The notes beneath the pieces are model-generated. The model saw only the letters and a program-made list of their open reading frames with translations. It was not told the DNA's origin and did not search any database. Both the position numbers and the translations under genes were made by a program. Of a stretch of DNA of 64,000 nt, positions 39,804-62,720 are shown in pieces; the first letter of the stretch is position 1; the number at the start of each line of letters is the position of its first letter. Source of the stretch: an uncultured Clostridia bacterium (GTDB lineage: Bacteria > Bacillota > Clostridia > Christensenellales > Aristaeellaceae); NCBI GenBank assembly GCA_946408995.1, contig CAMJUL010000007.1, positions 17 to 64,016 of the forward strand. Reading direction: 5' to 3'.

Positions 39804-40283
39804 TTATTGTACGCGGCTGAAAGCGGGATCCGCGGCAAGGCGCTTCAGCAGGGCTCTGCAGCCCAGGTCCACGTCCCGCAGGGTCCTTTCAAAATCCCGG
39901 GTATACCAGGGGTCTGCGACCTCCTGCCCGGGAAGGCCGGCCCAATCCAGAAGGAGGCTGGCCTTTTTCATGGCGTTTTTTCCCAGGATCCGTTCCATGT
40001 CATATAAATTCTCCAGGTCCATGGCGATCAGATGATCATACCTTTCGGCATCGCTTTTTTCCAGAAGCCGCGCGGCATGGGGAGGGCAGGGGATCCCATG
40101 GGCCAGCAGCGTTTTTTTCATAGGCGGATATACATCGTTTCCGATTTCTTCCGTGGTAGCGGCTGCGGAAGCTGCGGTGATCCATCCCTCCATATGCATT
40201 TCCTTAACCAGGTGCTGGAGCACCTTTTCGGCGCAAACGCTGCGGCAAATGTTGCCGTGGCAGACAAATAATATCCTGATCAT
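39804..40283 (-). CDS. Low-molecular-weight protein-tyrosine phosphatase
   Basis: P-loop VCHGNICRS (C-X5-R-S) at the N-terminus and the DPWY aspartate loop. 159 aa. Confidence 0.85.
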   Translation of the reverse strand: MIRILFVCHGNICRSVCAEKVLQHLVKEMHMEGWITAASAAATTEEIGNDVYPPMKKTLLAHGIPCPPHAARLLEKSDAERYDHLIAMDLENLYDMERILGKNAMKKASLLLDWAGLPGQEVADPWYTRDFERTLRDVDLGCRALLKRLAADPAFSRVQ

Positions 40284-40412: not shown

Positions 40413-41189
40413 TCATTGGGAAAGGCGTTCCGTTTCCACCGGTTCCGCCCCTTTGCGCAGAATGCTGCTGATGAAGGCGCGCGTCCTTTCCTGCTTGGGA
40501 TTGGAAAAGAATTCCTGGGATGGGGCGGATTCCACAACGAGTCCCTTATCCATGAAAAGAACATGGTTTGAGACATTGCGTGCAAATTCCATTTCGTGGG
40601 TCACAACCACCATGGTCATCCCTTCTTCGGCGAGCCTGCGCATGACGTTGAGCACTTCCCCGATCAGCTCGGGATCCAGGGCACTGGTGGGTTCGTCAAA
40701 ATAGATGATCTCCGGCTTCGCGGCCAGACCGCGGGCAATGGCGACCCGCTGCTGCTGACCGCCTGAAAGTTCGATGGGATAAGCGTCCAGCTTATGACCC
40801 ATGCCGACCCGCTCCAGGGCTTCCAGAGCGGCTTTTTCCGCCTCGGCCCGTCCGATTCTGCGCCCGTGAATCAGGCCGAGGGTCACATTCTGAAGGACAG
40901 TTTTGTTCAGAAACAGGTTGTAGTTCTGAAAAACGAAGGCGGTTTTACGGCGAATGGCCGCGATGTCCCGCTTGCTTACTTTGTGCATGTCATAGACCGT
41001 TCCGTCAAAAACCATGGTGCCGCTGTCGGCGGTTTCAAGGAAATTCATACAGCGGAGCAGGGTGGTTTTCCCTGAGCCGGAAGGCCCGAGAATGGCGATC
41101 ACGTCGCCTTTATGGACGTTCAGACTGATGCCCTTCAGCACTTCGTTTCCGGGGGTAAACTGTTTCCGGACGTCTTGGATCTCAAGCAT
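40413..41189 (-). CDS. Amino-acid ABC transporter ATP-binding protein
   Basis: Walker A GPSGSGKTT, signature LSGGQQQRVAIARGL, Walker B IIYFDEPTSALD. Confidence 0.9.
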   Translation of the reverse strand: MLEIQDVRKQFTPGNEVLKGISLNVHKGDVIAILGPSGSGKTTLLRCMNFLETADSGTMVFDGTVYDMHKVSKRDIAAIRRKTAFVFQNYNLFLNKTVLQNVTLGLIHGRRIGRAEAEKAALEALERVGMGHKLDAYPIELSGGQQQRVAIARGLAAKPEIIYFDEPTSALDPELIGEVLNVMRRLAEEGMTMVVVTHEMEFARNVSNHVLFMDKGLVVESAPSQEFFSNPKQERTRAFISSILRKGAEPVETERLSQ

Positions 41190-41861
41190 TTAACGATTTC
41201 CTCCGTAAGCACTCAGCTTCTTTTCTCCCCAACGCTGGAGCAGGGTCAGCAAAGAGCAGAAAATCAAATAAATAAACGCAACTTCTGAATAAAGCGCAAG
41301 GGATTCGTACACTCTGCCGTTGATGACAATGGCCTGGCGGAACATCTCGGTGACCGTGATGACGGATGCCAGCGAAGTTCCCTTGACCATGGAAATCAGG
41401 GAATTGGACAGGGCGGGGAACGCGGTCCGGAACGCCTGAGGAAGAATCACGTGGCGCATGGTGCTCAGGTAACTCATGCTGACGCAATACCCCGCTTCCA
41501 GCTGACCGGAGGGAACGGATTCCAGGGCGCCGCGCATGGATTCGGCCATATACGCCCCTTCGTTAAAGCCAAAGACGAGCACTGCAGTGGGAAAGGCATC
41601 CAGAAGGATCCCTAAACTGGGAAGGCCATAGAATACCAGGTAAAGCTGCACCAGCAGCGGCGTACAGCGGATGATCCAGATATAGATCCTGCAGACCTGG
41701 CGAAGCACCTTGACCTGGGCATATTGTATCATTGCGACTGTGACCGCGATGATTAGGGCGATGGAGAAGGAGAGCGCGGTCAGGGGCAGCGTCATGGTAA
41801 AGAATTTCTCAATCAGCTGAGGAAAGGCGTCTTTCAGGATTTGGATAACTCTGTCGTTCAC
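41190..41861 (-). CDS. Amino-acid ABC transporter permease (His/Glu/Gln/Arg type)
   Basis: GTG start at 41861, preceded by GGAGG. It overlaps the M20 stop as GTGA. Polar amino-acid permease type with the loop LEAGYCVSMSYLSTMRHVILPQAF. Confidence 0.8.
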   Translation of the reverse strand: MNDRVIQILKDAFPQLIEKFFTMTLPLTALSFSIALIIAVTVAMIQYAQVKVLRQVCRIYIWIIRCTPLLVQLYLVFYGLPSLGILLDAFPTAVLVFGFNEGAYMAESMRGALESVPSGQLEAGYCVSMSYLSTMRHVILPQAFRTAFPALSNSLISMVKGTSLASVITVTEMFRQAIVINGRVYESLALYSEVAFIYLIFCSLLTLLQRWGEKKLSAYGGNR

Positions 41862-43270
41862 AGCAGGACCTCCGCTTTTACGCAAACTTGCTCGATCAGA
41901 CGTGTCAGCACACGGATTCCCTGGAGATATGCGCGGACCGAGATCCGCTCGTTGGTTCCGTGAATGCCTGTGGATGAAATGTCTTCTTCTTCAAGAAACG
42001 GGCCAAAACGAAAACAGCAGGGACTGACAGGCTCGTATTGACGGCAGTCGGTTGCGCCGCGGTTCTGGACCGGAATAAAGATCAGCGAATCAAAATAATG
42101 CTCCAGGACCTGCTTGAGGGCATCAAACGCCCCGGTATCCAGCCTGGAAGGGCGGGAAGCGGGGATCTGCTGTTCCCATTCCAAATCAATGTCACTGTCA
42201 AGCAGGGAACGGCAGGTGGTAAAGACGCTTTCCGGGGTATCCTGCGGGGCGAAACGGAAGTTGATCACTGCGGACATATCCTGAGGCATCACATTGGCGG
42301 CAGGCGCGCCCTCGCTGATCATGGTAGGAGCGATGGTTGTGGACACCTGATGATAAAGGCTTTCCTTGGACATGTACCAATGGACCAGTTCATCCTCATG
42401 CTTTTGCGTATCCTGAAGCCATCCTCTGACTGGGTCCTGCGTGATATAAGGGGCGAGCAGCTGCAGGGCAGAGCGAGTACAGTCGTTCAGACGTGGGGGC
42501 GGGGGATTCGAAAGGATCCGGGCGATGGCGCTTGCAAGGATCCCAAGAGACGTCCCATGAAACGGATTGGAGCTGTGCCCTCCTTTGCTTCGTACGGTCA
42601 AACGAAGATCCCCATACCCTTTCTCATAGGTGCCGATGGTGCAAACCTGTTTTCCAGGCGCGCCGTAATCCGCGGCGTCGGCGACATCACCGGAGCCTTC
42701 GTCCAGAACAAGGGCAAACCGGATCTGTCGTTCCATGAGGAGCGAACAGATAGCCATGGCGCCGGTACTGCGGGTTTCCTCGTCTTCCCCGAAGGCAAAA
42801 TACAGAGTCCGTTTCAGTTTCTTCCCTTTGGAAAGCAGGTATTCCGCCGCTTCAAGATGACCGATCAGCATTTCCTTGATATCCAGCGCGCCTCTGCCCC
42901 AAATATAGCCATCCGCCAGGTCCCCGCTGAAGGGGGCATGTGCCCAGTCCTTTTCCGTTCCGGATTTGACGGGAACCACATCCTGATGCGCCATCAGCAG
43001 AATGGGAAGCAGGGTGCTGTCGCTGCCGGGAAGAACGATCAGAAGGCTGTGTCCCACCGTCTCCCAGACAGCCTGAGAGGCAATGTGCGGATAGGACCGG
43101 TGCAAAAATGCGTGAAAACGCTTGAAGACAGCGTAGTCAGTCTGCGCAGTATCCAGGTGGCTGACGGTGGGAAAGCGAAGCGCTTCCTGCAAATGCGCAC
43201 ATGCGGCGTCACGGGGGAAGTCCGGGTAATCCGTCTCATGGATAAAATGGGCGGAATTGTTCATAAGCAT
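41858..43270 (-). CDS. M20-family metallopeptidase/amidohydrolase
   Basis: LLMAHQDVVP, GRGALDIK and FGEDEE motifs of the M20/M25/M40 family. 470 aa. Confidence 0.75.
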   Translation of the reverse strand: MLMNNSAHFIHETDYPDFPRDAACAHLQEALRFPTVSHLDTAQTDYAVFKRFHAFLHRSYPHIASQAVWETVGHSLLIVLPGSDSTLLPILLMAHQDVVPVKSGTEKDWAHAPFSGDLADGYIWGRGALDIKEMLIGHLEAAEYLLSKGKKLKRTLYFAFGEDEETRSTGAMAICSLLMERQIRFALVLDEGSGDVADAADYGAPGKQVCTIGTYEKGYGDLRLTVRSKGGHSSNPFHGTSLGILASAIARILSNPPPPRLNDCTRSALQLLAPYITQDPVRGWLQDTQKHEDELVHWYMSKESLYHQVSTTIAPTMISEGAPAANVMPQDMSAVINFRFAPQDTPESVFTTCRSLLDSDIDLEWEQQIPASRPSRLDTGAFDALKQVLEHYFDSLIFIPVQNRGATDCRQYEPVSPCCFRFGPFLEEEDISSTGIHGTNERISVRAYLQGIRVLTRLIEQVCVKAEVLL

Positions 43271-43352: not shown

Positions 43353-44159
43353 TTATTCAGCGTTTGGCGCGACGGTCAGGTCCAGTCCGTTAAAATAGCG
43401 GGTGGAAATCTCAGAGAGCCTTCCGCTTGAGCGCAGCGCCTCGATGGCCTCATTGACGGCCTGACGCAGCGCGGCGGAATCGTCCCCTTTCCGCATGGGG
43501 ATCGCTACCGGGTCCCCTTCCGTTTCGGCTACGATTTTCAGATGGACATCCGGATGCGCAAGGAGGTAGTCATTGATGGTGACTTCGGAGTTGATGGTGG
43601 CGTCAACACGCCCCTGGAGGAGCAGCGCAAAGGTATCCGCGAGGGTCTCCACCCCGACCACCGTGGCTCCGTAGGCTTCGGCGAGGGCTGCGTAGGTGCT
43701 GGAGGCCGTGTTGGCGGTGGTTTTGCCTTTCAGGTCTTCCAGGACCTTGATGGTTTCGTTATCGTCCCGGACCACAAGCACTTTATGGGTATAGACATAG
43801 GGGATGGAAAAGTCATATTTTTCCGCGCGGGTTTCCGTATATCCGACGCCATTGCATGCCAGGTCGAAGCGGCCGGAGTCGACTCCTGCCAGGATAGCGT
43901 CCCAGCTGGTTTCCTCAAATCGGGCTTCTACACCGAGATACTCCGCAATGGCCTTTCCAAGTTCGATGTCCAGCCCGACGAGTTCGTTCGCTTCATTGTG
44001 GAAAGTCCAGGGCTGCCAATCCCCTTCTGTGGCAATGACGATATATCCGCGCGCTTTGATGTCCTCCAACTGGTCCGCATGGGCGGATACGGAAAGACTC
44101 AGCACCATCAAAAGGGCAAGGAGCATTGCTGCAAGGCGCGAAATAAAGGAATGCTTCAT
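43353..44159 (-). CDS. Amino-acid ABC transporter substrate-binding protein
   Basis: Start at ATG 44159, giving the signal peptide MKHSFISRLAAMLLALLMVLSLSVSAHA. Family-3 solute-binding protein of about 268 aa. Confidence 0.85.
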   Translation of the reverse strand: MKHSFISRLAAMLLALLMVLSLSVSAHADQLEDIKARGYIVIATEGDWQPWTFHNEANELVGLDIELGKAIAEYLGVEARFEETSWDAILAGVDSGRFDLACNGVGYTETRAEKYDFSIPYVYTHKVLVVRDDNETIKVLEDLKGKTTANTASSTYAALAEAYGATVVGVETLADTFALLLQGRVDATINSEVTINDYLLAHPDVHLKIVAETEGDPVAIPMRKGDDSAALRQAVNEAIEALRSSGRLSEISTRYFNGLDLTVAPNAE

Positions 44160-44235
44160 AGGATTTACCGTCCTTTCTGACGTTTGTACGGAATAGGTGG
44201 AACGATGGAAGTATATCTCATTTGAACCCATTATG

Positions 44236-44290
44236 CAAATAAAGATTGTTTATGGCGGTCAAATAAGATTGTTTATGGCGGCCAAATAAG
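44236..44290. repeat. Tandem direct repeat, about 2.4 copies of a 22-23-nt unit (CAAATA(A)AGATTGTTTATGGCGG)
   Basis: Copies at 44236-44258 and 44260-44281 differ by one extra A. A partial third copy CCAAATAAG follows. Confidence 0.8.
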
Positions 44291-44297
44291 AAGGCCT

Positions 44298-44705
44298 TCA
44301 AAGCTTTTTTGTGAAGGACAGGATGTTTTGACCGTCCTCGTATCTGTAATGGATCTCATCCATGCTTTTTTTGACCATATAGATCCCAAGACCGCCAATC
44401 TGCCGTTCTTCGGCGCTCAAGGTCACGTCCGGATCAGGCCTGGCCAGCGGATTGAAGGGGATCCCATGATCCCGGAATTCAATGCGGACGGAAGGAGGTT
44501 CCGAAACCGTTTCGATCCGGATCTGCGCTTCCCCTGTGCGTGGAGCATAGGCATACGTTGCGATGTTGACATAGATTTCTTCCACGGCCACGTCGATCTG
44601 CATCTGCGTTTTCATTGGGCAGGCAAGCGCTTCGAGATGGGCGTCGACAAAAGCCAATACCTTCTCAAGGGATTCCACACTGGCTTGCAGCGTCATTTCA
44701 TGCAT
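44298..44705 (-). CDS. Anti-sigma-factor-type serine kinase (RsbW/SpoIIAB-like HATPase domain)
   Basis: 135 aa. AVEEIYVNI (N-box region), RDHGIPFNPL (G1) and IGGLGIYMVKK (G2/ATP lid). Confidence 0.7.
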   Translation of the reverse strand: MHEMTLQASVESLEKVLAFVDAHLEALACPMKTQMQIDVAVEEIYVNIATYAYAPRTGEAQIRIETVSEPPSVRIEFRDHGIPFNPLARPDPDVTLSAEERQIGGLGIYMVKKSMDEIHYRYEDGQNILSFTKKL

Positions 44706-44841
44706 GTTGTTTTTCCTCCGTTCCCATATAACGCAGACCAGGCATTGCAGCGCCTTTCCATAAAGTTGAGAAATAAAGCGCAGGAAGCTTTGCAGAAAGG
44801 GGCCCCGTCCTTTTTCCCGCTTGGAAAGGATATCCCCCTTT

Positions 44842-46617
44842 TTATAATACTACCCGCATTACGTTGAATCCTTCATAATTCCGGTAGGTGAATGATTTGG
44901 CCGTTTTTTTGACCATCAGGACGCCAACAGAATCAAGAAACTCTTCTTCCCTCCCCTTTTGGAGCTTGCCCATATTCATCATCAAGGGATTGAAGCGGGG
45001 GGCGCTGTTGCGGATGCAAAGGGTGCAGTCTCCGCTTTCTTCAAGGGCGAGGGTGATCTGGATGTATTCATCATTCTTCCCGCTGAACGCCCGTTCCATG
45101 GTAACAAGACACAGCTCTTCAACGGCAAGCTGGATCTGCATTGCTTTTTTCAAAGGGATCTCCTGTGCGCGGCAGAACGCGTCAAGACGGACCAGCACCT
45201 GATGAAGTTCATGATCGGCATTGTTCAAGACGGCGCTGAAAAGAGGAAGCCTGCGCTGTACGTTTCCCCGTTCAAAGAGAAAACGGATCGCCAGAAAAGC
45301 CAGCAGGGAAGCGGCTTCCGTGGCGGGGAACAGCAGCCAGAAGGACTTTGGAAAAAGCAGACCGAAAAGAACCGTAAAGGGAAGCAGGAAGACAGCGCTC
45401 CTCAGGAGGGTGATCAGGCTGCTCAGCTTTGCGCAGCCGGAGGACTGATAATACGCGATGAGGATAAAAAGGGCCCCCGCTATGGGCGTACTCAGGCAGA
45501 ACCACCGAATGGCCGGAACAGATATCAGGACGGAAGCGGAATCCCGGAGGCCAAAGACACCGGAAATGGGGACGGCAAGCAGCGCGAGAACAGCGGAAAG
45601 GAAGGCCCCCAGGCCCACCCCCCAAAACAGGGCCAGACGGAGGGCGTATTTGAGACTGGATTCGTCATGCTCCTCGCTGAAGGTGGAAGCCAAAGGCTGC
45701 ATGGTTTCCGCTGAAGCCCGGTAGATGGAATAGGCCACATGGGAGACGTTCATGACAACGTCAAAGACGGCCACGTACAGGGACCCGTCAATGATTCCGC
45801 GGTCTCCGGCGGCAAGCAGTAGGCGGTTTGCAATGAAAAGGAACAGGAACTGGAACACATAGCGCACAGAGGTGGAAAAACCGATCCCCAGGGATTCAAG
45901 GCAGAGGGAGAGGACCTGGGCGGGCTCCCCCCGGGCACGGAGGATGGATTTCAAATGAAGGACACCGCTGTGATCAAACAAATGGACGGAAAGCACGGCT
46001 GCGCATACGATCTGCGCGGTAACGGTCGCCCAAACAGACCCAGCGACCCCTTTTCCAAGGATCAGCACGAAGAAAATATTCAGGCCCAGGTCAACAGCGC
46101 TGCCAAGGGTCAGCCCGAGGGTGGCCAGGCCGGGTTCGTCATCACATCGGGTAAAGTCGTAAAGAAGAAAATTGAGCATGAACAAGGGTGCGGCACCGAC
46201 CAGCGGCCGGGCATAGCTTTCACACAGGGAGAGGAGCTCCTTCCGGGTGTCGTTAACGCCAAGAAGCGCAAGGAGGGGGCGCATGAACACATTGCCGAGA
46301 ACTGCAAAAAGCAACGCTCCCAAAAGCGCCTTCCACGCCAGAGAGCGAAAAACGCACAAAGCGGTTTCGTTCTTGCCGCCGGCCGTCAGCTTCCCGTGGG
46401 TGACACAGCCGCCCCGGGCAATCCCATAACCGAACAGGTTGTAGATCATATAGATCGGGGTAACGATGCCGATCGCGGCCAGTCCCTGTTCCCCGACCCG
46501 CTGTCCGACGACCAACGCGTCCGCGATATCCGCAAAGGATAAAGCCAGGGCGGAAATCGAGGCTGGCCAAAGCACCCGATAGAACATTTTGCGCGGAAAC
46601 CAACGATTCGGGTTCAT
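44842..46617 (-). CDS. MATE-family transporter fused to a C-terminal RsbW-like HATPase domain
   Basis: Start at ATG 46617. The first 455 aa or so are polytopic MATE-like. The last 135 aa or so align with the neighbouring 135-aa kinase (AVEELCLV, FNPL, MVKK), but G1/G2 are degenerate (NSAPRFNPL, LDSVGVLMVKK). Confidence 0.7.
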   Translation of the reverse strand: MNPNRWFPRKMFYRVLWPASISALALSFADIADALVVGQRVGEQGLAAIGIVTPIYMIYNLFGYGIARGGCVTHGKLTAGGKNETALCVFRSLAWKALLGALLFAVLGNVFMRPLLALLGVNDTRKELLSLCESYARPLVGAAPLFMLNFLLYDFTRCDDEPGLATLGLTLGSAVDLGLNIFFVLILGKGVAGSVWATVTAQIVCAAVLSVHLFDHSGVLHLKSILRARGEPAQVLSLCLESLGIGFSTSVRYVFQFLFLFIANRLLLAAGDRGIIDGSLYVAVFDVVMNVSHVAYSIYRASAETMQPLASTFSEEHDESSLKYALRLALFWGVGLGAFLSAVLALLAVPISGVFGLRDSASVLISVPAIRWFCLSTPIAGALFILIAYYQSSGCAKLSSLITLLRSAVFLLPFTVLFGLLFPKSFWLLFPATEAASLLAFLAIRFLFERGNVQRRLPLFSAVLNNADHELHQVLVRLDAFCRAQEIPLKKAMQIQLAVEELCLVTMERAFSGKNDEYIQITLALEESGDCTLCIRNSAPRFNPLMMNMGKLQKGREEEFLDSVGVLMVKKTAKSFTYRNYEGFNVMRVVL

Positions 46618-47058
46618 AAATACGCCTCGTAAATAAACAAGCGATTTTGGAAAAAGCATTGTGTCTTTGCCGTCTGCTGCAGTCCGGGCTCTTTCAGGCT
46701 GAACGGCGGACACGGGAGGGCAACATCGCCAGGCTGGATCCCGGAACGGAAAAGCGTCAGCACGCTTCAGGAAGGAAGGGCTGTATCAAGGGCAGGGGAG
46801 CCCCTTTTTGGCAGACGATAAAGCGGGGAGCAAAGAGGAGAAAAAAGAAGATCCCTTTTCTGCGTATCGTAGAGCCATCTGCGGATCTTGCCGGCGTCCC
46901 CGCAGGGAAAGAAACAGGCGTTGAACAGACGGCTGCGGTCCATCAGGTGTAGGCCAAGAGATCAGCAAAGGAAAGGAAGTGCGGAAGGGGGAGCAAAAGA
47001 GGAGTCCTTGAGCCGTGAGGCCTGACAAAGAGCACGGTTTCCATTGGGTGAAAAGGGA

Positions 47059-47358
47059 TCATGGCTCAATACTGAGAATGTCCACAATACCCGTTGCTTC
47101 AAAGATTTCCATGATTTCAAGGGGAACAATCCGGATGACCTGCTGCCCAGACAGTTCATGGCCTTCTGGGCGGAAAGCAGCACCTGAAGGCCGGCAGAAG
47201 AAAGATAGACCAAGCTTTTCGGGTCAAAAACCGGATTTTACGATGCGGGATAGAGATGCGCGAAGCGCTTCCTCAAGCTGTGGGGCCGTGCTGGTGTCAA
47301 GCCTTCCTTCCGGTTCAATGACAAGAGCGTTCTCTTCCTGCTTTTTCTTGCTCTCCAT
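47059..47358 (-). pseudogene. STAS-domain anti-sigma-factor antagonist (SpoIIAA/RsbV-like) with two frameshifts
   Basis: My own translation gives three segments in three frames. They are MESKKKQEENALVIEPEGRLDTSTAPQLEEALRASLSRIVKSG, then FDPKSLVYLSSAGLQVLLSAQKAM, then ELSGQQVIRIVPLEIMEIFEATGIVDILSIEP. The switches are near 47226-47230 and 47155-47165. Confidence 0.55.
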
Positions 47359-47584
47359 GATTGTATCCCTGCAGTTTTAATTTGCTGCTTTAGCGGGATC
47401 CATCGGGCGGGACAGCCCGGTCCGCCGGGAAATGCCGTTCATGAGAGTTCCCTGTGTATTCAATACGCGGGGATTATACCACAGGACCTGTATATATACA
47501 AGCGGGTATATGATGCACCGGATAGGGCAGCGCGGGATTGCGTGCGGAAATCCTCCTTGCCTCAAAGAACCGCAAACTGAAGGA

Positions 47585-47614
47585 ATGGTAAGAAATGTAA
47601 TGGTAAGAAATGTA
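47585..47614. repeat. Perfect tandem duplication of a 15-nt unit (ATGGTAAGAAATGTA x2)
   Basis: Read directly. It is followed by the inverted repeat ATTGTTA-N8-TAACAAT at 47614-47635. Confidence 0.85.
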
Positions 47615-47658
47615 ATTGTTACGTTATTATAACAATGCTTTCGGAAAAGAATAGATTC

Positions 47659-47687
47659 TTGAAAAAAATGCCGGAATGGATTATAAT
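47659..47687 (+). promoter_or_regulatory. Sigma-70-type promoter for the polysaccharide locus
   Basis: TTGAAA-N17-TATAAT in an AT-rich region, about 180 nt upstream of ATG 47868. Confidence 0.5.
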
Positions 47688-47867
47688 AAATTGATTGTAT
47701 GGTAAGGTGGATTAGACTTCCTGTACAATGTATTTTTATCCTTTTTAATGTATGGCTCATACGGGCATTTGTTCGGGATACACACGGGGTCCGCGAAGGG
47801 GGATCACAGAGATCGATCCGACTGTGAACGCTTTTCGCCGGTTCCACGGATGGAGGATGCATCGCGA

Positions 47868-49283
47868 ATGAAAAAAAGCATTGATCTTGGCAAGCTGATG
47901 CTTTTTATTCTGAAAAACAGCTGGCTCGTTATTCTTTGCGCAGCCATCTGCTTTGGTGTCATGTACTGGCGCACTGCCAGCAGGCAGGTGGATACCTATA
48001 CGGCTTCCGGCACCATGTATGTATACAACGGCAACCCGAATCTGGTCAATTATCAGTATACAAGTACTTCCGATCTGAACAGCGCCATTCAGCTTCTGGA
48101 CACCTATTCGGTGGTCGTCAGGAGCAACAAGGTCCTGGATGCCGTGGCCGAGCGGCTCAGTGCGGATTATCCGGGAATTACCCCTGAATTTATCAACTCC
48201 ACCCTTTCCATGGGTTCTGTATCGGATACCGGCGTGATGCGGATCAGCTGCACGTCCACCGCGGCCCAGCTTTCTGCGGACATCTGCAACGCCGTTTTGG
48301 ACGTGGCGCCCGCGGAGATCATCCGTGTGGTCAATGCCGGCGGAATCGAAATTATCGATTACGCCGCAGTTCCGGAATCGCCCAACAGTCGGAACCCGAT
48401 GATGAAGGGAGCTATCGGAGGCCTTGCCGGTGCGGTGCTGGCGGCTGGGGTGCTCAGCGTTTTGTTTCTTGTGAACCAAAGGGTCGGCTCCGCCAAGGAA
48501 CTGACGGACAGCTATACCCCGCCGGTGCTGGCGGAGGTTTGCCTGGACAAACGGAAAAACGATCAGAACGGGCATTTTTTGCTGACGGCCCAAAGCCCCA
48601 TGGAGATCACGGAAAGCTACGCAAAGCTTCGCATGAACCTTTCCTACACCCTGGTCGGGAAGAACAGCCGTGCTGTCATGATCACCAGCTCCATTTCCGG
48701 GGAGGGGAAATCCACCATCGCGGCCAACCTGGCCATTTCCTGCGCCCTGAGCGGGCGAAAAGTGCTTCTGGTGGACGCGGATATGCGCCGGGCCTGTCAA
48801 AAGGACCTGTTCATGCTGGAGGACGGGCTTCCGGGACTGTCTGATGTGCTTGCAGGCAGCTTCAGATGGCAGGATGTCATCCTGCCTCAGGCGGAACGGG
48901 GGATCGACCTGCTTCCTGCCGGGCATATCCCTCCCAACCCCGCGGAACTTCTGGAATCCGGGGAGATGGAACGGCTGCTGGGCGAGCTGGCCGGGGCGTA
49001 TGATCTGATCCTGGTGGATTCCCCTCCGATCAACATCGTATCGGACCCGGTGGCACTGGCAAACAAGGTTGCCGGCGCGTTGTTTGTGGTGCGGCAGGGG
49101 GTTTCCGAACACCGGGAGATACGCCAGGCGCTCAATACGGCCGAGCTGGTCAACCTGAACCTGCTGGGCTTTATCTTCTATGCAAACAATCCCCGCAAAG
49201 GCTCCTATTACAGCAAAAAATACTACAAGTATTATCACCAGTACGACAAAAGAGGCCAGGACCAACAGAAAGGAAACGTTTGA
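47868..49283 (+). CDS. Fused chain-length-regulator (Wzz/CpsC-like) and BY-tyrosine-kinase (CpsD/Wzc-like) protein
   Basis: Start at ATG 47868 (GGAGG upstream). N-terminal TM, Wzz-like domain and second TM, then Walker A SGEGKST, Walker A' VLLVDADMRR, Walker B LILVDSPP, and the C-terminal Tyr cluster SYYSKKYYKYYHQY. Confidence 0.85.
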   Translation: MKKSIDLGKLMLFILKNSWLVILCAAICFGVMYWRTASRQVDTYTASGTMYVYNGNPNLVNYQYTSTSDLNSAIQLLDTYSVVVRSNKVLDAVAERLSADYPGITPEFINSTLSMGSVSDTGVMRISCTSTAAQLSADICNAVLDVAPAEIIRVVNAGGIEIIDYAAVPESPNSRNPMMKGAIGGLAGAVLAAGVLSVLFLVNQRVGSAKELTDSYTPPVLAEVCLDKRKNDQNGHFLLTAQSPMEITESYAKLRMNLSYTLVGKNSRAVMITSSISGEGKSTIAANLAISCALSGRKVLLVDADMRRACQKDLFMLEDGLPGLSDVLAGSFRWQDVILPQAERGIDLLPAGHIPPNPAELLESGEMERLLGELAGAYDLILVDSPPINIVSDPVALANKVAGALFVVRQGVSEHREIRQALNTAELVNLNLLGFIFYANNPRKGSYYSKKYYKYYHQYDKRGQDQQKGNV

Positions 49284-49297
49284 AGGAGTCTGTAAAC

Positions 49298-52200
49298 ATG
49301 AGGGAAAAAGCGGGAAAATGGATTTTGCTCCTTCTGCTGACGCTGTGTCTGTCCAGCTGCTTTGTTTGGTCGGCTTTGGCCGAAAACGTTTTCGCCCTTA
49401 CTCTGCCCACAGTTACCGAAACGGACTGCGTTTGGGACGGGGAAGGGAACCTGATCAGCGAGACGGCGCATGACCTTTCCGGCGCGCCGGCGCTGAATCA
49501 GAGGGGCTTCTTCAGAGGCGAGTATACCTGGGACGCTCACGGAGATCTTCTCTCGGAGCGGTACTACGGGCTGAACGGAGAGCCTGTCGTGACGGACGCC
49601 GGCTATGCCTGGGCGGAATATACCTATTATATTGATTCCGATGATGTCGCCCATGTGCTGACGGTGGACCGGTACGCCGCGGACGGATCCCGGGCGGAGG
49701 TGCCGGGCAGCTACAGCTACCGCAGAGACGCCTACCAGGACGATATGCTTTTGTACAGCGAATACTTTGATGCTGCGGGACAGTATACCCGGCCCACCGG
49801 CGGATATGCCCGTATCCTAGTGGATCATCAAAACGTCGGGAGCGTGCTCCGGCTGACTTTCCGGTACCTGGACGCGGACGGAAGTCCGCTGATCGGGCCG
49901 GACGGCGGGGCCGTGATGGTTTCGGAATATACCTACTGCTATATGACAGAAGACGGGGAAAAGGTGTTTCTGGACCCGAGAACAGCGGATCCGGAGGACC
50001 CGCTCTGGGGGCTGGAGCTGGATACGGAAAAACGGCTGGGCGTCAAGAAGCACTGGCTGCTCCTCTCCCGGGAGATCTTTGGGAAGGACGGTTCCCCTAC
50101 CCTGGGCACCCACCATTTCCACCGCCAGAAAAACACCTATGACGCGCATTACAATCTCGTCCGTACGGACTATTTCGGGGTGGAGGAAGAGCCTGTGATG
50201 GCGACCACCGGGTATGCCTCCATCGTGAATACCTACGACTCCATCGACCGGCTGATCCAGGTGGATTATCTGGACCGGCAAGGGGCTTTGGTTAAGATGG
50301 TCAACGGCTACGCCAGGATCAAATATGCGTATTATGGAAGTACCGATGTCCTTCACTACGAATGGTATTTTGGCGCGGACGGCATGCGCACCATGCGTAC
50401 GGAAGGTTATTCCATGGCGGAGCACGAATACAATGGCCCGGACTATGATTACCGCATTACCTATTACGACATCATCGACGAATACACCATGATGGATCAG
50501 GGCTTTGCCCGGATCGAATACAAGTTTTACGGGCAGCGGGGCTACAGGGAGAACAGCGGCACCTGGATTCTCCGTCTGGCGGATATCCTGTGGGAAAAGT
50601 ATTATGGCGTGGATATGCGCCTGATCCAGACCAAGGCCCATTACGCGGGGTACCTCAATGATTACAACGGGAACGGGCAGGTCATCAGGACCACCTATAT
50701 GGACGAAAACTGGGTCCCTGTCCGCAATGATGAAAAGCAGTTCGCGATCATCGAATATCAGTACAAGGGCACCCGGAAGGACGACCCACCTGTATACGAA
50801 GCGTATTTTGATGAAATGCATGTTCCCTGCGAGGGGATCACAGGGGCCTACGCCCGTTCCATGGTCTATGGCGGGCCCAAGGAAAACCTGCTGTTTGAGG
50901 AATGCTTCTTTGACGCCAATGGGGGGAAAACCGTAAGCATTGAGAACAATGCCCATCGGGTGACGTATTATTACAGCGGCAACCTGTCCGGGGGCGAGCT
51001 GGTACAGACCCGCGTATGCTATTACGACGTGGACGGCAGTCCCATCGGCAACCATGTCGGGGTCGCCGCCATGTACAGGGAGTACAGGCATGACGGCGGG
51101 CTTCTGTGGGAAATGGCTTTCGACAAGGACGGGAAGCTGACCGTATCCGGCAGCCATGCCGCTGCCCAGCTGCACACATATGATTACGCCGGCCAGGCGA
51201 ACTGGGATGTGTTCTTTGGGACGGACGGCCTGCCGGTGACCCACAAGGCGGGGTATTCCGCCGTGGCCTATCGGCACGATTTGGACGGAAATATCACGGA
51301 AACGACCTATTACAACGCCGAAGGGGATCCTGCGGCTGTTTCCGGCAGGGCAAGGATCGTCAGGACCTATGACGACAGCCACCGCGTTGTCTATGAGGCC
51401 TATTATGGGACGGATCTGAAGCCTGTGCGGGTGGATACAGGGTATGCTGCAAGGCGCATTGAACGGGACAGCCGGACAGGACTCCTTACCCGTGAGGCCT
51501 TTTATGACGAAAACGACAAGCCCGTCCAGCTTTCCAGCGGCTATTCGTCCTATATCGTTGAATATGACCTGAACAGGGTCCGGACCAAAGTCGCGTACTA
51601 TGATGTGAACGGGAATCCGGTCGCGCCTCCGTCTGTCCGCTACGCCTGGTATGAGCGGCAAACGGACGAACACGGAAACATCCTGGAGGAAGCCTATTAC
51701 AACCCGGACGGCAGCCTGATCGTCAACCGGGACGGCTATTCCGTGACGGTGATGACCTATGACGTCAACGATTATCGGACCAGCGTTACCTATCTGGATA
51801 CCGCCCGGAAACCGGTGCTTACTGCCTTGGGCTATGCCCGGGTGGAAGAGACCTACGACGCCCACGGGAACCAGCTCAGCGCGGCGTATTTTGACGCTGC
51901 CCTGAAGCCGATGGTTCTTCAGGAGGGATGGCATCGGGTCCTCTATGCGTGGGATCCCGAGAACCGCAAGCTGTCCGAGGCCTATTTCGATGCGCAGGGG
52001 ATGCCCGTTGAATGTCCCTTTGGGTATGCCTCCTTCGCGAGGGAATATGATACAAACGGCAATCTGATCCGTGAGGTGTATTACGGGACCGATGGCCGCG
52101 TCACCAATGTGACGGCCGGCGCTGCCCTGATGGAGCGGGAGTATGATACCCGGAACCGTCTTCTGAGCGAAAGGTATTATGACGAAACAGGCCTCCCCTT

Positions 52201-55192
52201 GATGCTCAGGGGGGATTACGCGGCGGTCGAGTATGCCTATGACGGGTTTGACAACGTCATCCGTGAAGCGTACTTTGACGCCGACGGGAACGGCGTCGTT
52301 TCTTCCAAGGGGTTTGCCCTGATGGAACGCGTCTATGACGCGTCCGAGAACCTGCTTTCGGAGCAGTATACAGACGCCCAGGGTCATTTGCTGGTGCAGA
52401 AATCAGGATACGCGAAGCTTGTTCAGACCTGGGACACCCACGGAAACCTGACCACCCAGGCCTGGTACGGTTCAGATGGAATGCCTCTTTTGCAGGATGG
52501 CGGCTACGCGTATATCGAATATCGGTATGACGCCCACGGGAACTGCCTCAGCCAGCGCTGGTATGAGCGTGAAGGGAAAGCGGCGACCCTCGCCGGCGGG
52601 TATGACCGCAAGGATTACTCCTATGACGCGTCCAACAACAGGATCCTGGAGGTTTATTACCTTGAGGGTCAGATTGTCACGATCGATGAGGGGTACGCGG
52701 CCAGGCGGTTTGACTATGACAGCATGAACCGGGTCGTCAAGGAGTCCCTCCTGGGCAGACAGCTGGGCCGGGTGATGGGAAAAAGAGGCTATTCGGCGAT
52801 CCAGTATATTTATGACTATGCAGGGCACACCCTTCAGGTCCGGTATCTGGACAGCCTGGATCATCTGGTGCGGCTTCCGGAGGGCTTCAGCGTATGGCAG
52901 CGGGAATATGATCAGTACGGACATGTTATCCTGGAGCAGTACCTGGACGAAAAGGAGCGGATCGCGTCCCTTACCAACCGCTCTCCTGTGATCCGCAGGA
53001 CATATGACGGCCGCGGGAATCTTCTCCGCCAGGAATACCTGACCGCGGCGCTCCAGCCTTGGGAACTGCATTTTGGATACGCAACCCTTGTATATACCTA
53101 TGACGACCAGGACAGACAGACCAGCGTGACCTATCTGGATGCCAAGGACCTGCCGGTGCTGATGTCTGAGGGGTATGCGGCCATCCGGTATGAATATGGC
53201 ACGCAGGGGAAGGCCTGGCGGGTAACGTATCTGGACACCGCCGAGCAGCCCACCCTGAACAAGGACGGTTATGCCGTCGCCGTGTATACCTACGACGAAA
53301 ACCTGTACCTGACCTATATCGAATACCAGGATGACTCCTATCAGCGCACTTATCTGTATGACGGATATTCCGCCATCCGGCGGACCGTGGATAAAAACGG
53401 GGACATCCTGACAGAGACGTATCTGGACAATGACGATCTTCCCGTTCCCCGCGCCCAGGGCTATGCCATGATCCGTAATACCTGGGACGACAGACAGCGG
53501 AGGATCCGGCTGGAATATCTGGATACGGAAGGCCTTCCGGTCATGATGGAGGGCAGCTACTGCGCCATCGGATACGCTTATGACAACAGTGACAACCTGA
53601 TCCGCCGGTCTTATTACGGCAAGAACGGGCAGCTGACCTGGGGACGCTTTGGCTACAGTGAGATCGTTTATACCTTCAATGCCAGGAATTTCTGCGTAGC
53701 GGAGCAGCTTTTGAACATTCAGGGTCAGCACGCCATCCATTCAAGTTACTATTATTCCTCCCTTCAGCGGGACGTGGATCCGGATGGCAAGATCCTCTCG
53801 GTCCGCTATTATGACGCGGGCGGAAATCCGGTGCTGTATCAGAACGATTATTATGAGGTGCGGTATACCTACGACCTGGCCGCAAGGGAAACGGCCGTTA
53901 GTTACTATGACCGCAGCGGCGTTCTCAGCAAGGGGACCCGCGGCTTTGCCACCCGGACAAGGGAATACAACGACCTGGGCCTTGTTACTCGCGAGGCGTA
54001 TTTTGACGGGAATGGAAACCTTTGCAACACCGTCGACGGCTACGCGCTTACAGTGTACACCTATGACGAACTTGGGAATATGACCTCTGAGCGCCACTAC
54101 GATACCCTGTTCCTGGGGGTGACGCCTACAGGCTCGCTTTACGCGTATGTCAAAAAAGCCTACGATGAGGAGGGCCGCGTTGTCAGCGAGGAATATCTTG
54201 ACGATTTCGACCGCTATGTCCTGAACGAAGACGGATACGCCGCCCATTTTATCAGCTACAATGAAAATGGTCGGATCGCGGAGGAGTATTATCTGGACAA
54301 TTACCATCAACCGGTCAACGTGGGCGGGTTCAGCCGCAGGACCCTGGTCCGCGAAAATGAGGCGGACAGGACCTATACCATGCGGGAGGAGCTTTTGGAT
54401 CCCCTTGAGGGTGAAGTGGTCTCCATTACCGAACAAACCTATAACCATTACGACCGTGCGGTGGAGACCCGTTATCTGGACAAAAACGGGCAGATGACCA
54501 CCGGGGCCGAAGGCTGCGGCATCGTGCGGAGAGAGTATACCGGCAGGGGAGCGGTTTCCCTGGAACTGTACCTGAATGAAAAGGAAGAACCGGTCGCCGT
54601 GAATGGGGTCTATGGCGTCCGGAGGGATTACAACGCTTACGGAAATCTGGCGCTTGAAACCTGGCTGGACCGGGACGGCAACGCCGCAACGACCCTGAAC
54701 GGATACGCTGCCATCCGGTACGACTATGATCTGAGCAATTCCGAACGGGTCGAGAAATACTTTCAATACTATCTAGACACGGCGGGAAACCGCTGCGCCG
54801 CAAAGAACGGCGCGTGGGGGGTCAGTACCCTGTATTATCCCGTGACCTTGGTGCGGGTCATCACCTTCATCGATCGGGACGACAATCCCATCACCACAAC
54901 CGACGGATACGCCATTATGGAATATGAAGAGGATCAAAACGGCAATCACGTCTGGGAAGGCTATTATGACGCACGCCATGCACAGGTCAATTGCAGCGAA
55001 GGCTATTCCAGCGTGGAACGCTCCTTTGACAGCCGGGGACGGGTCATCAGCGAACGGTATCTGGACCGTTACAACAAACTGACAAATAACGCCGATGGGG
55101 TGGCCGGGTGGACCGGGTACTATAATGACGACGGAACCCTTGTGATCACCAGCCGGTATGACAAGGACCGCAGGCAGCTGCCCAAGGAATAA
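49298..55192 (+). CDS. Giant secreted protein (1964 aa) made almost entirely of 32-residue tandem repeats (YD-like motif), function unknown
   Basis: ATG 49298 lies 9 nt after GAAGGAG. Signal peptide/lipobox MREKAGKWILLLLLTLCLSSCFVWSALA. The repeating unit is G-Y-A-x5-Y-D-x2-G-N-x4-E-x-Y-x-D-x2-G-x-P-V, with a strict 32-aa period over long runs. Confidence 0.85.
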   Translation: MREKAGKWILLLLLTLCLSSCFVWSALAENVFALTLPTVTETDCVWDGEGNLISETAHDLSGAPALNQRGFFRGEYTWDAHGDLLSERYYGLNGEPVVTDAGYAWAEYTYYIDSDDVAHVLTVDRYAADGSRAEVPGSYSYRRDAYQDDMLLYSEYFDAAGQYTRPTGGYARILVDHQNVGSVLRLTFRYLDADGSPLIGPDGGAVMVSEYTYCYMTEDGEKVFLDPRTADPEDPLWGLELDTEKRLGVKKHWLLLSREIFGKDGSPTLGTHHFHRQKNTYDAHYNLVRTDYFGVEEEPVMATTGYASIVNTYDSIDRLIQVDYLDRQGALVKMVNGYARIKYAYYGSTDVLHYEWYFGADGMRTMRTEGYSMAEHEYNGPDYDYRITYYDIIDEYTMMDQGFARIEYKFYGQRGYRENSGTWILRLADILWEKYYGVDMRLIQTKAHYAGYLNDYNGNGQVIRTTYMDENWVPVRNDEKQFAIIEYQYKGTRKDDPPVYEAYFDEMHVPCEGITGAYARSMVYGGPKENLLFEECFFDANGGKTVSIENNAHRVTYYYSGNLSGGELVQTRVCYYDVDGSPIGNHVGVAAMYREYRHDGGLLWEMAFDKDGKLTVSGSHAAAQLHTYDYAGQANWDVFFGTDGLPVTHKAGYSAVAYRHDLDGNITETTYYNAEGDPAAVSGRARIVRTYDDSHRVVYEAYYGTDLKPVRVDTGYAARRIERDSRTGLLTREAFYDENDKPVQLSSGYSSYIVEYDLNRVRTKVAYYDVNGNPVAPPSVRYAWYERQTDEHGNILEEAYYNPDGSLIVNRDGYSVTVMTYDVNDYRTSVTYLDTARKPVLTALGYARVEETYDAHGNQLSAAYFDAALKPMVLQEGWHRVLYAWDPENRKLSEAYFDAQGMPVECPFGYASFAREYDTNGNLIREVYYGTDGRVTNVTAGAALMEREYDTRNRLLSERYYDETGLPLMLRGDYAAVEYAYDGFDNVIREAYFDADGNGVVSSKGFALMERVYDASENLLSEQYTDAQGHLLVQKSGYAKLVQTWDTHGNLTTQAWYGSDGMPLLQDGGYAYIEYRYDAHGNCLSQRWYEREGKAATLAGGYDRKDYSYDASNNRILEVYYLEGQIVTIDEGYAARRFDYDSMNRVVKESLLGRQLGRVMGKRGYSAIQYIYDYAGHTLQVRYLDSLDHLVRLPEGFSVWQREYDQYGHVILEQYLDEKERIASLTNRSPVIRRTYDGRGNLLRQEYLTAALQPWELHFGYATLVYTYDDQDRQTSVTYLDAKDLPVLMSEGYAAIRYEYGTQGKAWRVTYLDTAEQPTLNKDGYAVAVYTYDENLYLTYIEYQDDSYQRTYLYDGYSAIRRTVDKNGDILTETYLDNDDLPVPRAQGYAMIRNTWDDRQRRIRLEYLDTEGLPVMMEGSYCAIGYAYDNSDNLIRRSYYGKNGQLTWGRFGYSEIVYTFNARNFCVAEQLLNIQGQHAIHSSYYYSSLQRDVDPDGKILSVRYYDAGGNPVLYQNDYYEVRYTYDLAARETAVSYYDRSGVLSKGTRGFATRTREYNDLGLVTREAYFDGNGNLCNTVDGYALTVYTYDELGNMTSERHYDTLFLGVTPTGSLYAYVKKAYDEEGRVVSEEYLDDFDRYVLNEDGYAAHFISYNENGRIAEEYYLDNYHQPVNVGGFSRRTLVRENEADRTYTMREELLDPLEGEVVSITEQTYNHYDRAVETRYLDKNGQMTTGAEGCGIVRREYTGRGAVSLELYLNEKEEPVAVNGVYGVRRDYNAYGNLALETWLDRDGNAATTLNGYAAIRYDYDLSNSERVEKYFQYYLDTAGNRCAAKNGAWGVSTLYYPVTLVRVITFIDRDDNPITTTDGYAIMEYEEDQNGNHVWEGYYDARHAQVNCSEGYSSVERSFDSRGRVISERYLDRYNKLTNNADGVAGWTGYYNDDGTLVITSRYDKDRRQLPKE

Positions 55193-56367: not shown

Positions 56368-58329
56368 TTGGATGAGAACACGAACAGAACCCCTGTCAGG
56401 TTGCGGGGCATGCTCCTGGCTTACGATTTGGGGATCTACCTGGTTTTGGGTATCCTGATCGTCGGCTTTTACCCCTCCTATGTTGAAAAACTTGGCTTCT
56501 GGGATGTGGTCACCAATATCCTCGTGGGGTTGTTGTGTATCTTCCTTCCCAGACTTGCGATCGGGATCTACAACTATATCTGGCGTTACGCGGGGGCGGA
56601 GGAGTTCATCAACCTGATCTTCGCGGATATCATCGGCCTGGTCCTTTTCCTGGCCGTTGGAAGGATCATTCCGCAGCCGCTGACCTTTATCCATACGGTG
56701 TCGCTGGTTGCCTTCAACCTGTTGATCAATATTTCTCTGCGCCTTGTCTACGTATACATTTACAGACAGCGCAGCAGCAACGCCTTTGCGGAGCAGTGGG
56801 CCCTGCAGCTCCTCCGGCTCTTTACGGGGGTCAATTTTCATATGGAAACGCCCACCAACGCGGACAGGCGCATCAAGATCGCCATTGTGGGCGCGGGAAG
56901 CATCGGCGCCATGCTGGCGGAAGAACTGCAGGGCAATCCCAAGGCCCCTTATCAGGTGGTCTGCTTTGTTGATGTCAATCAGGAAAAAACAGGGCGGAAT
57001 ATTCTGGGCATCCGTGTGCTCGGGGAAGGGGTCAACCTGCATTCTCAAATGGAAGCCCTGGGCGTGCAGGAAGTAGTCATCGCGCTTCCCAATGCCTCTC
57101 CGGAGACCAAGCAGCAGATGTACGACCTGTACAGGGGGTATGGATACCGGGTCAAGGCCTACGATTATCCCACCATCGAAAACGGCGCCAACTCCAGGCC
57201 TCAGATGCGTGAATTCAACATTGAGGAACTGCTATTCCGCAGGGAAGAAACCTTTGTGGAAGAAAAAACGAAGGCGTGGTATCGCGGCAGACGGGTATTG
57301 ATCACGGGGGGCGGCGGCAGCATCGGCAGCGAGCTGGCCCGGCAGGTAGCCCACATGGAGCCGGAACTGCTGGTTTTGCTGGACATCTACGAAAATGGGG
57401 TTTATGATATCCAGCAGGAGCTCAAGTTCAAATATGGCGATAAGCTGAAGCTGCAGGTGGAGATTGCCAATGTCTGTGACCGCTCCGCTATGGAAGCGAT
57501 TTTTGCGACCTACCGGCCTGACATCGTTCTGCACGCGGCGGCCCACAAGCATGTGCCGCTGATGGAGCATAACTGCTGCGAAGCGGTGCGAAACAATGTG
57601 TTTGGGACCCTGACCACCGTGGAGACCAGCGAAAAATACGGGGTCAAACGGTTCATCATGATCAGCACGGACAAGGCGGTCAACCCCACCAATGTGATGG
57701 GAGCCACCAAGCGGGTATGTGAGATGATCGTGCAGAGCCGTACCGGAAGCGGGACCTCCTTCAGCGCCACACGCTTTGGCAATGTGCTGGGCAGCAACGG
57801 GTCTGTGATCCCCCTGTTTCGCCGGATGATCGAGAATGGCGGTCCTGTGACCATCACGGACAAGCGCATCATCCGGTATTTTATGACCATTCCGGAAGCC
57901 AGCCAGCTGGTGCTCACCTCCGGCGCCATGGCCAGCAACGGGGAGCTGTATGTGCTGGATATGGGCAAGCCGGTCAAGATCATTGAACTGGCGGAACGCA
58001 TGATCCGCATGGCCGGCCGGGAGCCCTACAAGGACATTGATATTGTGGAAATCGGGCTGCGTCCCGGGGAAAAACTGTATGAAGAGCTTTTGATCCGCGG
58101 GGAAAACATCGGCAATACCGACAACAAAATGATCTTCATCGAACGGGATAAACCCCTCTCCAGGGAAGAAATGGACGGCCGCATCGAAATCCTGAGGGAG
58201 GCGCTGGTAAGCGGCAGCGATGACGAGCTTCGCCAGGCACTCAAACGGGTTTTGCCCACGTACCGTTCTCCGGAGGAGGTCAACCGCAATGCGGAGCATG
58301 CGGAGGAAATGAAGACCCTCGCCCAATAA
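56368..58329 (+). CDS. Membrane-bound NDP-sugar 4,6-dehydratase (CapD/PglF/WbpM family)
   Basis: TTG start. Four N-terminal TM segments, two Rossmann motifs (VGAGSIGAML and ITGGGGSIGSEL), and the short-chain dehydrogenase core HAAAHKHVP. Confidence 0.85.
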   Translation: MDENTNRTPVRLRGMLLAYDLGIYLVLGILIVGFYPSYVEKLGFWDVVTNILVGLLCIFLPRLAIGIYNYIWRYAGAEEFINLIFADIIGLVLFLAVGRIIPQPLTFIHTVSLVAFNLLINISLRLVYVYIYRQRSSNAFAEQWALQLLRLFTGVNFHMETPTNADRRIKIAIVGAGSIGAMLAEELQGNPKAPYQVVCFVDVNQEKTGRNILGIRVLGEGVNLHSQMEALGVQEVVIALPNASPETKQQMYDLYRGYGYRVKAYDYPTIENGANSRPQMREFNIEELLFRREETFVEEKTKAWYRGRRVLITGGGGSIGSELARQVAHMEPELLVLLDIYENGVYDIQQELKFKYGDKLKLQVEIANVCDRSAMEAIFATYRPDIVLHAAAHKHVPLMEHNCCEAVRNNVFGTLTTVETSEKYGVKRFIMISTDKAVNPTNVMGATKRVCEMIVQSRTGSGTSFSATRFGNVLGSNGSVIPLFRRMIENGGPVTITDKRIIRYFMTIPEASQLVLTSGAMASNGELYVLDMGKPVKIIELAERMIRMAGREPYKDIDIVEIGLRPGEKLYEELLIRGENIGNTDNKMIFIERDKPLSREEMDGRIEILREALVSGSDDELRQALKRVLPTYRSPEEVNRNAEHAEEMKTLAQ

Positions 58330-58368
58330 GTGCTGCGAATGAATTACGAATTGAAAAGAGGAATACGC

Positions 58369-60704: not shown

Positions 60705-60737
60705 TCGTCTGGAACAAATGCGACATATAGTTTTTTC

Positions 60738-62718: not shown

Positions 62719-62720
62719 TC

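Follow-up and report, generated by a model that had tools for sequence, protein, structure and literature searches.

How does a membrane transporter come to carry an anti-sigma-kinase-like domain, and could such a transporter itself be the output of a partner switch? Partner switching is the textbook form of sigma factor control, and few non-sigma outputs are known. The question is raised by a locus in a 64 kb stretch of contig CAMJUL010000007.1 from an uncultured Clostridia bacterium (the whole stretch analysed, hereafter "the window"). Here, a gene encoding a MATE transporter fused to a C-terminal RsbW/SpoIIAB-like domain (hereafter "the fusion" and its "tail") lies between a STAS (anti-sigma-antagonist-like) gene and a stand-alone kinase gene. 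The original prediction, made from the sequence, was that the kinase sets the phosphorylation state of the STAS protein, which docks on the tail and thereby regulates efflux after translation. Our analysis favors, with a probability of roughly 55%, the reading that a conserved Clostridial cassette has partly decayed at this locus and that, in its intact relatives, the cassette gates its transporter by a partner switch. The three predicted features were found on one strand, the minus strand, together with a gene relic and a deletion scar, as listed below.

44298–44705, minus strand: stand-alone RsbW/SpoIIAB-type Ser kinase, 135 amino acids (aa), intact (Pfam HATPase_c_2, sequence, residue census).
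44740–44841, minus strand: deletion scar of 102 nucleotides (nt), at the site of a HAMP-SpoIIE phosphatase gene in the orthologous locus L083 (blastn synteny against L083).
44842–46617, minus strand: open reading frame (ORF) of the fusion, MATE plus pseudokinase tail, ATG start (MNPNRW), 591 aa.
44842–45267, minus strand: SpoIIAB/RsbW-like pseudokinase tail of the fusion, residues 451–591 plus the stop codon (Pfam HATPase_c_2, fold, residue census).
45268–46617, minus strand: MATE/MOP transporter domain of the fusion, residues 1–450, with 12 predicted transmembrane (TM) helices (Pfam MatE, AlphaFold2, Foldseek).
46857–46943, minus strand: short relic of an LPG_synthase_C (LPGC)/DUF2156-like transferase gene, peptide NACFFPCGDAGKIRRWLYDTQK at about 46937–46872 (tblastn, LPGC profile).
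47059–47358, minus strand: disrupted STAS gene in three frame segments (ORF list, DNA alignment with orthologues).

The fusion proved to be genuine, as had been predicted. The longest ORF at this site (44842–46713) opens at a GTG, and the homologues begin at the ATG at 46617. Both Pfam domains score over their cut-offs: MatE (PF01554) with 64.9 bits in two stretches (cut-off 24.9) and HATPase_c_2 with 36.5 bits across residues 470–588 (cut-off 27.4). A word-indexed protein search retrieved more than 120 protein clusters of 45–66% identity, all full length and nearly all with both domains, and 80 loci in Clostridia spanning residues 1–591 emerged when one genome of each species was scanned. Because the architecture recurs in these clusters and loci, in which the junction between the domains is open, an assembly artefact at the junction was ruled out. 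Among the 80 loci, mostly from gut and rumen, are members of Oscillospiraceae, Lachnospiraceae, Christensenellales, Butyrivibrio, Oscillibacter, and Flavonifractor. A profile of the tail matched 228 clusters at E ≤1e−10 among 1.84 billion representative proteins, and the tail is C-terminal in the full-length matches (about 575–590 aa). NCBIfam has no dedicated model for the MATE-HATPase_c_2 fusion, and NCBI names its members only "ATP-binding protein" or [quoted passage not shown]

The transporter part scored under the cut-offs of NCBIfam TIGR00797 matE (88.4 versus 147.4 bits) and PRK09575 (104.9 versus 445 bits) and is, in sequence, a divergent branch of MATE. The AlphaFold2 model of the whole fusion (predicted local distance difference test [pLDDT], 84.5; predicted template modeling score [pTM], 0.83) has helices across residues 9–449, followed by a beta-alpha-alpha-beta-beta-(disordered lid)-alpha-beta-beta domain. 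Foldseek matched this model to PfMATE, VcmN, and DinF-BH at template modeling (TM)-scores of 0.82–0.84 and E of about 1e−13; the matches to MurJ and WzxE were weaker (E 1e−8 to 1e−6), and a MurJ/Wzx-type flippase identity was rejected for the TM domain. The 12-TM fold is shared with PfMATE, VcmN, DinF-BH, and NorM, whereas the fusion differs from such canonical MATE exporters in its low identity (about 20%), in its cytoplasmic pseudokinase domain, and in having transferase genes as neighbors where a drug pump would stand alone. In the family alignment, the polar residues D33, D159, D176, N180, D286, and E316 of the MATE domain are invariant, as expected of a working transporter, which is predicted to export. 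The fusion in the window departs from the family at just one column of ≥93% conservation (0–17 such columns in the others of 32 family members), and its sequence gives no sign of decay.

The tail shares 31% identity over 118 aa with the free kinase (BLASTP, E 1e−14), including the AVEE, FNPL, and MVKK blocks on which its homology had originally been proposed. Its degenerate nucleotide-binding boxes also read as described (RNSAPRFNPL in the tail versus RDHGIPFNPL in the kinase, and DSVGVLMVKK versus GGLGIYMVKK), and the degeneration extends to the whole family. This was determined by aligning 64 true kinase domains and 81 tails, all from the fetched loci. The N-box Asn is present in 64/64 kinase domains and 0/81 tails, which have A, V, S, T, or I instead; the G1 Gly is kept in 64/64 kinase domains and 0/81 tails (Ala in 78), and the first G2 Gly in 64/64 and 1/81, respectively (D or N in 78 tails). 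The G1 Asp, invariant in the 64 kinase domains, is D in 62 tails, N in 18, and Y in 1. Both Glu residues of the AVEE block occur in all 81 tails; among the kinases, the second Glu is found in 64/64, and Asp (39 domains) or Glu (25 domains) occupies the first position. The tail in the window has Val, Ala, and Asp-Ser at the positions of the N-box Asn, the G1 Gly, and the G2 Gly-Gly. Elsewhere the tails are highly conserved (EYIQ, RNSAP.FNP, DS.GV, YRNYQGFN). By its residues, therefore, the tail is a conserved, family-wide pseudokinase, and the loss of catalytic residues from an otherwise conserved domain argues for selection for a non-catalytic role.

Modeled alone (pLDDT 81), the tail best matched the SpoIIAB structures 1tid, 1til, 1l0o, and 1th8 (TM-scores of 0.75–0.78), followed by UsfX, RsbW, and SiaB. 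Searches of the PDB with the tail sequence, single or as a profile, returned chance matches only, and the fold search alone was informative. Domain hidden Markov models (HMMs) and structure prediction had been proposed beforehand as a check on the tail, and in both it behaves as predicted, scoring as HATPase_c_2 and showing a Bergerat-type fold like that of SpoIIAB/RsbW. The free kinase, which is separated from the fusion by a gap of 136 nt and has a GGAGG motif preceding its ATG, scores 86 bits with Pfam HATPase_c_2 and keeps all catalytic residues, with a complete N-box Asn, G1 DxG, and G2 GGxG. It shares 70% identity with the kinase of L083. The NCBIfam equivalog models of RsbW and SpoIIAB, which were applied to the free kinase only, gave 30.6 bits (cut-off 145) and 25.3 bits (cut-off 135).

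A survey of the architecture and of its co-occurrence with STAS genes, also proposed with the original prediction, placed the fusion in the 80 loci and a small STAS gene near it in 39/63. For this census, ORFs were called in all fetched loci and compared using phmmer and profiles built from its matches; 63 loci had enough flank. A SpoIIE-type PP2C phosphatase gene is the next same-strand match after the fusion in 62/63 loci, a true kinase domain is present in 50/63 (fused to the PP2C in 32 of these 50), and the small STAS gene lies within 5 kb in the 39 loci mentioned; all three partners occur together in 35/63. From the gene tables of L083 and L001 and the Pfam matches of the partner proteins, the order of the intact, operon-like cassette is read as STAS, a DUF2156/LPG_synthase_C-like and/or formyltransferase (Fmt)-like transferase, the fusion, a membrane HAMP-PP2C, and an RsbW-type kinase. 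Besides L083, examples of the intact cassette are L026 of Oscillibacter sp. MSJ-31, L041 of O. valericigenes An907, L036 of Clostridium sp. 1001271st1_H5, and L071 of Butyrivibrio sp. FCS014. The cassette PP2C has a built-in TM and HAMP input module; its best NCBIfam match is SiaA, with 52 bits, far under the 700-bit cut-off. The motif Y-[ILV]-S-S-A-G-L is invariant in 50/50 STAS proteins. The second Ser of SSAGL presumably aligns to S58 of SpoIIAA and S56 of RsbV, which we take as a lead only. No sigma factor family is among the 25 most frequent of the 136 Pfam families matched in 105 neighboring ORFs from 18 loci, and the sole recurrent family in that scan is Formyl_trans_N.

Some loci carry additional proteins of the same kinds. 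A fusion of STAS to an APH phosphotransferase, of about 390 aa, was observed in L022 (6046–7227) and also in L020, L023, L042, L045, L046, L066, L069, and L078, and L051 encodes a 576-aa HD_4-STAS-APH protein (9316–11046). STAS is here fused to a different kind of kinase, which may represent a second layer of switching. In addition, a second, shorter SpoIIE-type PP2C (460–493 aa) follows the PP2C-kinase fusion in L021 (10052–11488), L062 (11555–13036), L077 (11055–12497), L051 (11257–12639), and L064 (7415–8857).

A transferase gene adjoins the fusion in 57/61 loci, being DUF2156-like only in 23, formyltransferase-like only in 19, and both in 15. The DUF2156-like protein of the relatives (280 aa; 38/61 loci) scores 68 bits with LPG_synthase_C (cut-off 27.5). 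For the formyltransferase-like protein, the nearest models are Fmt, ArnA, and PRK06988, with scores far under their cut-offs. In L068 and L074 (both at about 5.3–7.0 kb), the two enzymes are apparently encoded as one ORF of 558 or 572 aa, a Rosetta-stone type of fusion that implies a functional link between them. Because the transporter of the relatives is almost always paired with one of these enzymes, the drug efflux of the original prediction is doubtful, and the pairing suggests a dedicated cargo instead.

The domain, fold, residue, and neighborhood statements above are computed; from them we infer binding, phosphorylation, the direction of signaling, and the cargo as follows. The true kinase would phosphorylate the conserved Ser of the STAS protein, and the sensor phosphatase would strip this phosphate on a membrane or extracellular cue. 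The unphosphorylated STAS protein would then dock on the ATP-blind tail of the transporter, which would be derived from a kinase duplication and would have retained the partner-binding role only. SpoIIAB with ADP bound forms a stable complex with SpoIIAA, and by analogy, a tail that cannot phosphorylate the STAS protein would be a stable receptor for it. Docking would turn the MATE domain on or off, so that the export or flipping of the transferase product would be controlled after translation. The transporter is a plausible output of the switch for the family, and it is the most economical one because no sigma factor family recurs among the sampled neighbors.

A more detailed version of this proposal is tentative, and we regard it as clearly less probable than the general reading. 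MprF is an aminoacyl-phosphatidylglycerol synthase fused to a flippase. In the relatives, a DUF2156/LPG_synthase_C-type, aminoacyl-tRNA-transferase-like enzyme is likewise paired, and translationally coupled, with a membrane translocator; the differences are that the translocator is of the MATE type, that the enzyme is a separate protein, and that the window retains only an enzyme relic of about 22 residues. DUF2156 enzymes aminoacylate lipids (PMC7334510, PMC11630815). The intact cassette might thus have split a duplicated anti-sigma kinase into a kinase copy and an ATP-blind, phospho-STAS-sensitive receptor on a MATE/MOP exporter, which might move an envelope lipid or metabolite aminoacylated or formylated by the DUF2156-like and Fmt-like transferases, as a signal-gated, split analogue of MprF.

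How far the window itself has retained the cassette was judged against L083, its closest relative (66% identity). In L083, the genes are ordered STAS (99 aa), LPG_synthase_C/DUF2156-like (282 aa), fusion (591 aa), HAMP-SpoIIE phosphatase (560 aa), and kinase (136 aa), with overlaps of 4 nt between the STAS, LPGC, and fusion ORFs. SBP_bac_3, Peptidase_M20, permease, and ABC ATPase genes follow the kinase in L083, and their counterparts occur in the same order in the window (43353–44231, 41858–43270, 41190–41885, and 40413–41189, respectively). On the upstream flank, 48029–47878 of the window aligns to positions 1–152 of L083 (blastn). Because the flanks match on both sides, the two loci are orthologous. 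The transferase region, however, is 465 nt in the window versus 865 nt in L083. LPGC proteins from five loci matched the relic there by tblastn with E of 0.02–0.07, and the LPGC profile matched it at positions 60–81, with about 22 residues left. The phosphatase region is reduced further, to 102 nt versus 1,655 nt in L083, and a search of this scar found no SpoIIE relic. The original prediction had noted that neither a PP2C nor a sigma factor gene is adjacent, and this holds for the window: a home-made PP2C profile found no PP2C gene anywhere in the 64 kb, and no sigma factor gene adjoins the cassette. The missing PP2C is nevertheless no design feature; because the orthologous locus with identical flanks carries the phosphatase, its absence is, by this comparison, a secondary loss through deletion.

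The STAS gene is also broken. The frame from the ATG at 47358 closes at a TGA (47226–47224) after 44 codons, the segment with YLSSAGL (about 47235–47141) sits in a different frame, and the C-terminal part (47140–47059, GQQVIRIV...SIEP, with its stop at 47061–47059) returns to the first frame. DNA alignment with four orthologues located one extra base at about 47235–47239, beside an AAAA run, and the loss of one base between 47141 and 47140. The repaired translation scores 36.1 bits with Pfam STAS and is 59% identical to the STAS protein of L083. The STAS antagonist of the original prediction was thus recognized correctly as to its domain but does not exist as an open gene, three frames having been spliced without remark. 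The two indels could be assembly or sequencing errors, which weighs to some extent against decay; in that case, STAS would be intact in the actual genome and would form, with the fusion and the kinase, a minimal module lacking a dedicated phosphatase. Exact-sequence contig look-ups for the fusion and the kinase of the window, which might have supplied a second assembly for comparison, matched no record. Such errors would account for an indel next to a homopolymer, for indels that compensate one another, and for a still well conserved STAS core in the out-of-frame segment, and one other locus, L058, does have STAS and fusion with no PP2C within 7 kb. Yet the two indels fall within 100 nt, whereas about 3.6 kb of neighboring orthologous genes (four flanking genes) and ORFs of up to 1,970 aa are uninterrupted in the window, and so the indels are a local feature rather than a general error rate. 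The two large deletions of LPGC and SpoIIE in the same locus are not base-calling errors and fit gene decay. We therefore consider sequence error an improbable explanation. With the STAS gene frameshifted twice, and hence the central switch protein gone, and with the phosphatase and transferase deleted, the switch would be inoperable in this genome as first described, unless copies acting in trans are encoded elsewhere. The fusion and the free kinase are intact, and are either recently orphaned or working unregulated; their freedom from decay means that the losses are recent or that the pair is kept for another use.

Two other explanations concern the family. The signal flow might be reversed, with the MATE domain as a sensor or transceptor and the tail recruiting or inhibiting the true kinase as a heterodimer, or sequestering the STAS protein; transporter occupancy would then set the phosphorylation of the STAS protein, and the target would be encoded elsewhere. 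SpoIIAB and RsbW, among the best fold matches of the tail, are known to act as dimers, the kinase is usually fused to the membrane PP2C, so that both proteins would be at the membrane, and the STAS-APH and HD_4-STAS-APH proteins of several loci are possible downstream elements. This explanation seems unlikely to us, although less so than sequence error, because the PP2C already possesses its own input module, no output gene (sigma factor, diguanylate cyclase, or DNA-binding protein) recurs among the 105 neighbors, and the tight coupling of the transferase genes to the transporter suggests transport of their product. Less probable still, and in our view quite doubtful, is that the tail is a membrane-tethered anti-sigma factor for a sigma factor encoded elsewhere, released by the STAS protein as in RsbW/RsbV, with the MATE domain only an anchor or co-sensor. 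The best structural matches of the tail are indeed anti-sigma factors solved with sigma F or with antagonists (1l0o, 8jzt, 1tid). Against this stand the lack of a sigma factor gene adjoining the cassette in the window or among the most frequent families of the sampled neighbors, the scores of the free kinase (the only one scored) far under the RsbW and SpoIIAB equivalog cut-offs, and the many invariant polar residues kept by the MATE domain, as in a working transporter. Gating of the transporter by the partner switch therefore remains our preferred reading, and several observations weigh against it. The direction of signal flow is deduced solely from the absence of another output domain. The retention of the G1 Asp in 62/81 tails may mean residual nucleotide binding in some members. 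The census used our own ORF calls and home-made HMMs, and in it the small STAS gene (39/63) and the kinase (50/63) are less constant partners than the PP2C, so the target of the phosphatase might not be the STAS protein.

The cassette can be placed among known systems as follows. Like SpoIIAA/SpoIIAB/SpoIIE and RsbV/RsbW/RsbU of Bacillus, the family combines a STAS protein with a conserved Ser, a GHKL-type Ser kinase, and a SpoIIE-type PP2C, and its tail has the SpoIIAB/RsbW fold. In contrast to these modules, no sigma partner was found, a partner-binding domain exists as an ATP-blind paralogue on a 12-TM transporter, and the kinase and STAS proteins score far under the equivalog cut-offs; the window, moreover, has lost its PP2C gene and carries a disrupted STAS gene. 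The MlaFEDB complex includes a STAS protein, MlaB. SLC26/SulP transporters with a fused C-terminal STAS domain are also known (review PMC8256260). In both, a STAS-type component is physically coupled to a membrane transporter, as proposed for the cassette; there, however, STAS is attached to the transporter, whereas in the cassette the kinase-like partner is fused and the STAS protein is free and presumably phosphorylatable. Partner switches with non-sigma outputs have been described as SiaABCD in Pseudomonas aeruginosa, SypE/SypA in Vibrio fischeri, HsbR/HsbA, and HenR/All4160 in Anabaena (bioRxiv 10.64898/2026.04.08.717354). The cassette resembles these as a partner-switch-like phospho-module with a non-sigma output, and its PP2C-kinase fusions are reminiscent of the bifunctional SypE and Rv1364c (3ke6, a fold match of the tail). 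The proteins are not orthologous, and where SiaABCD-type systems act on a diguanylate cyclase or a biosynthetic enzyme, the candidate output of the cassette is a transporter with a pseudokinase receptor. Full-text searches of the literature turned up neither a MATE-HATPase_c_2 protein nor the cassette. We regard the cassette as a new form of non-sigma partner switching, with an architecture undescribed in the literature searched. PADLOC gave no match for any cassette protein, and a known defense system was ruled out on that basis.

In the window, the cassette is flanked downstream by the SBP_bac_3 gene and upstream by a divergent gene (47748–49283, plus strand) for a fused Wzz chain-length determinant and P-loop, BY-kinase-like protein. 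The approximately 370 nt between the STAS pseudogene and the Wzz gene (47377–47747) contain a tandem duplication, with TTACATTTCTTACCA occurring twice near 47590–47620, and the best promoter-like match of this intergenic region, TTGAAA-17-TATAAT, at 47659–47687 on the plus strand. A promoter and terminator scan of 44100–47800 found no more sites than expected from shuffled sequence and was not used. A low-molecular-weight phosphotyrosine phosphatase gene (39804–40283, minus strand) flanks the cassette region, and CapD-like and DegT genes lie further downstream (56368–59676); the cassette is thus located beside a capsule or exopolysaccharide locus. Within this polysaccharide locus, between the Wzz/P-loop gene on one side and a LytR_cpsA_psr gene on the other, a 1,970-aa ORF (49280–55192, plus strand) has many short Tyr/Asp/Gly-rich repeats (...GYA..EY.YD..GN...) and no Pfam match at E ≤1e−4. 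At the end of the window (60001–64000), the GC content falls from about 0.55 to 0.39–0.45 within the polysaccharide gene region, and this DNA may have been acquired horizontally.

The interest of these results is greater for the cassette family than for the decayed copy in the window. The decayed copy is nevertheless a natural experiment, in which the phosphatase, the transferase, and the STAS protein were lost first while the fusion and the kinase persist. Gut and rumen Clostridia commonly carry the cassette, and its pairing with transferases hints at envelope modification or an exported metabolite. If our reading is correct, the family would be an example of subfunctionalization, with kinase activity in one paralogue and partner binding in the other, and partner switching would be extended to the direct gating of membrane transport through a pseudokinase receptor built into the transporter.

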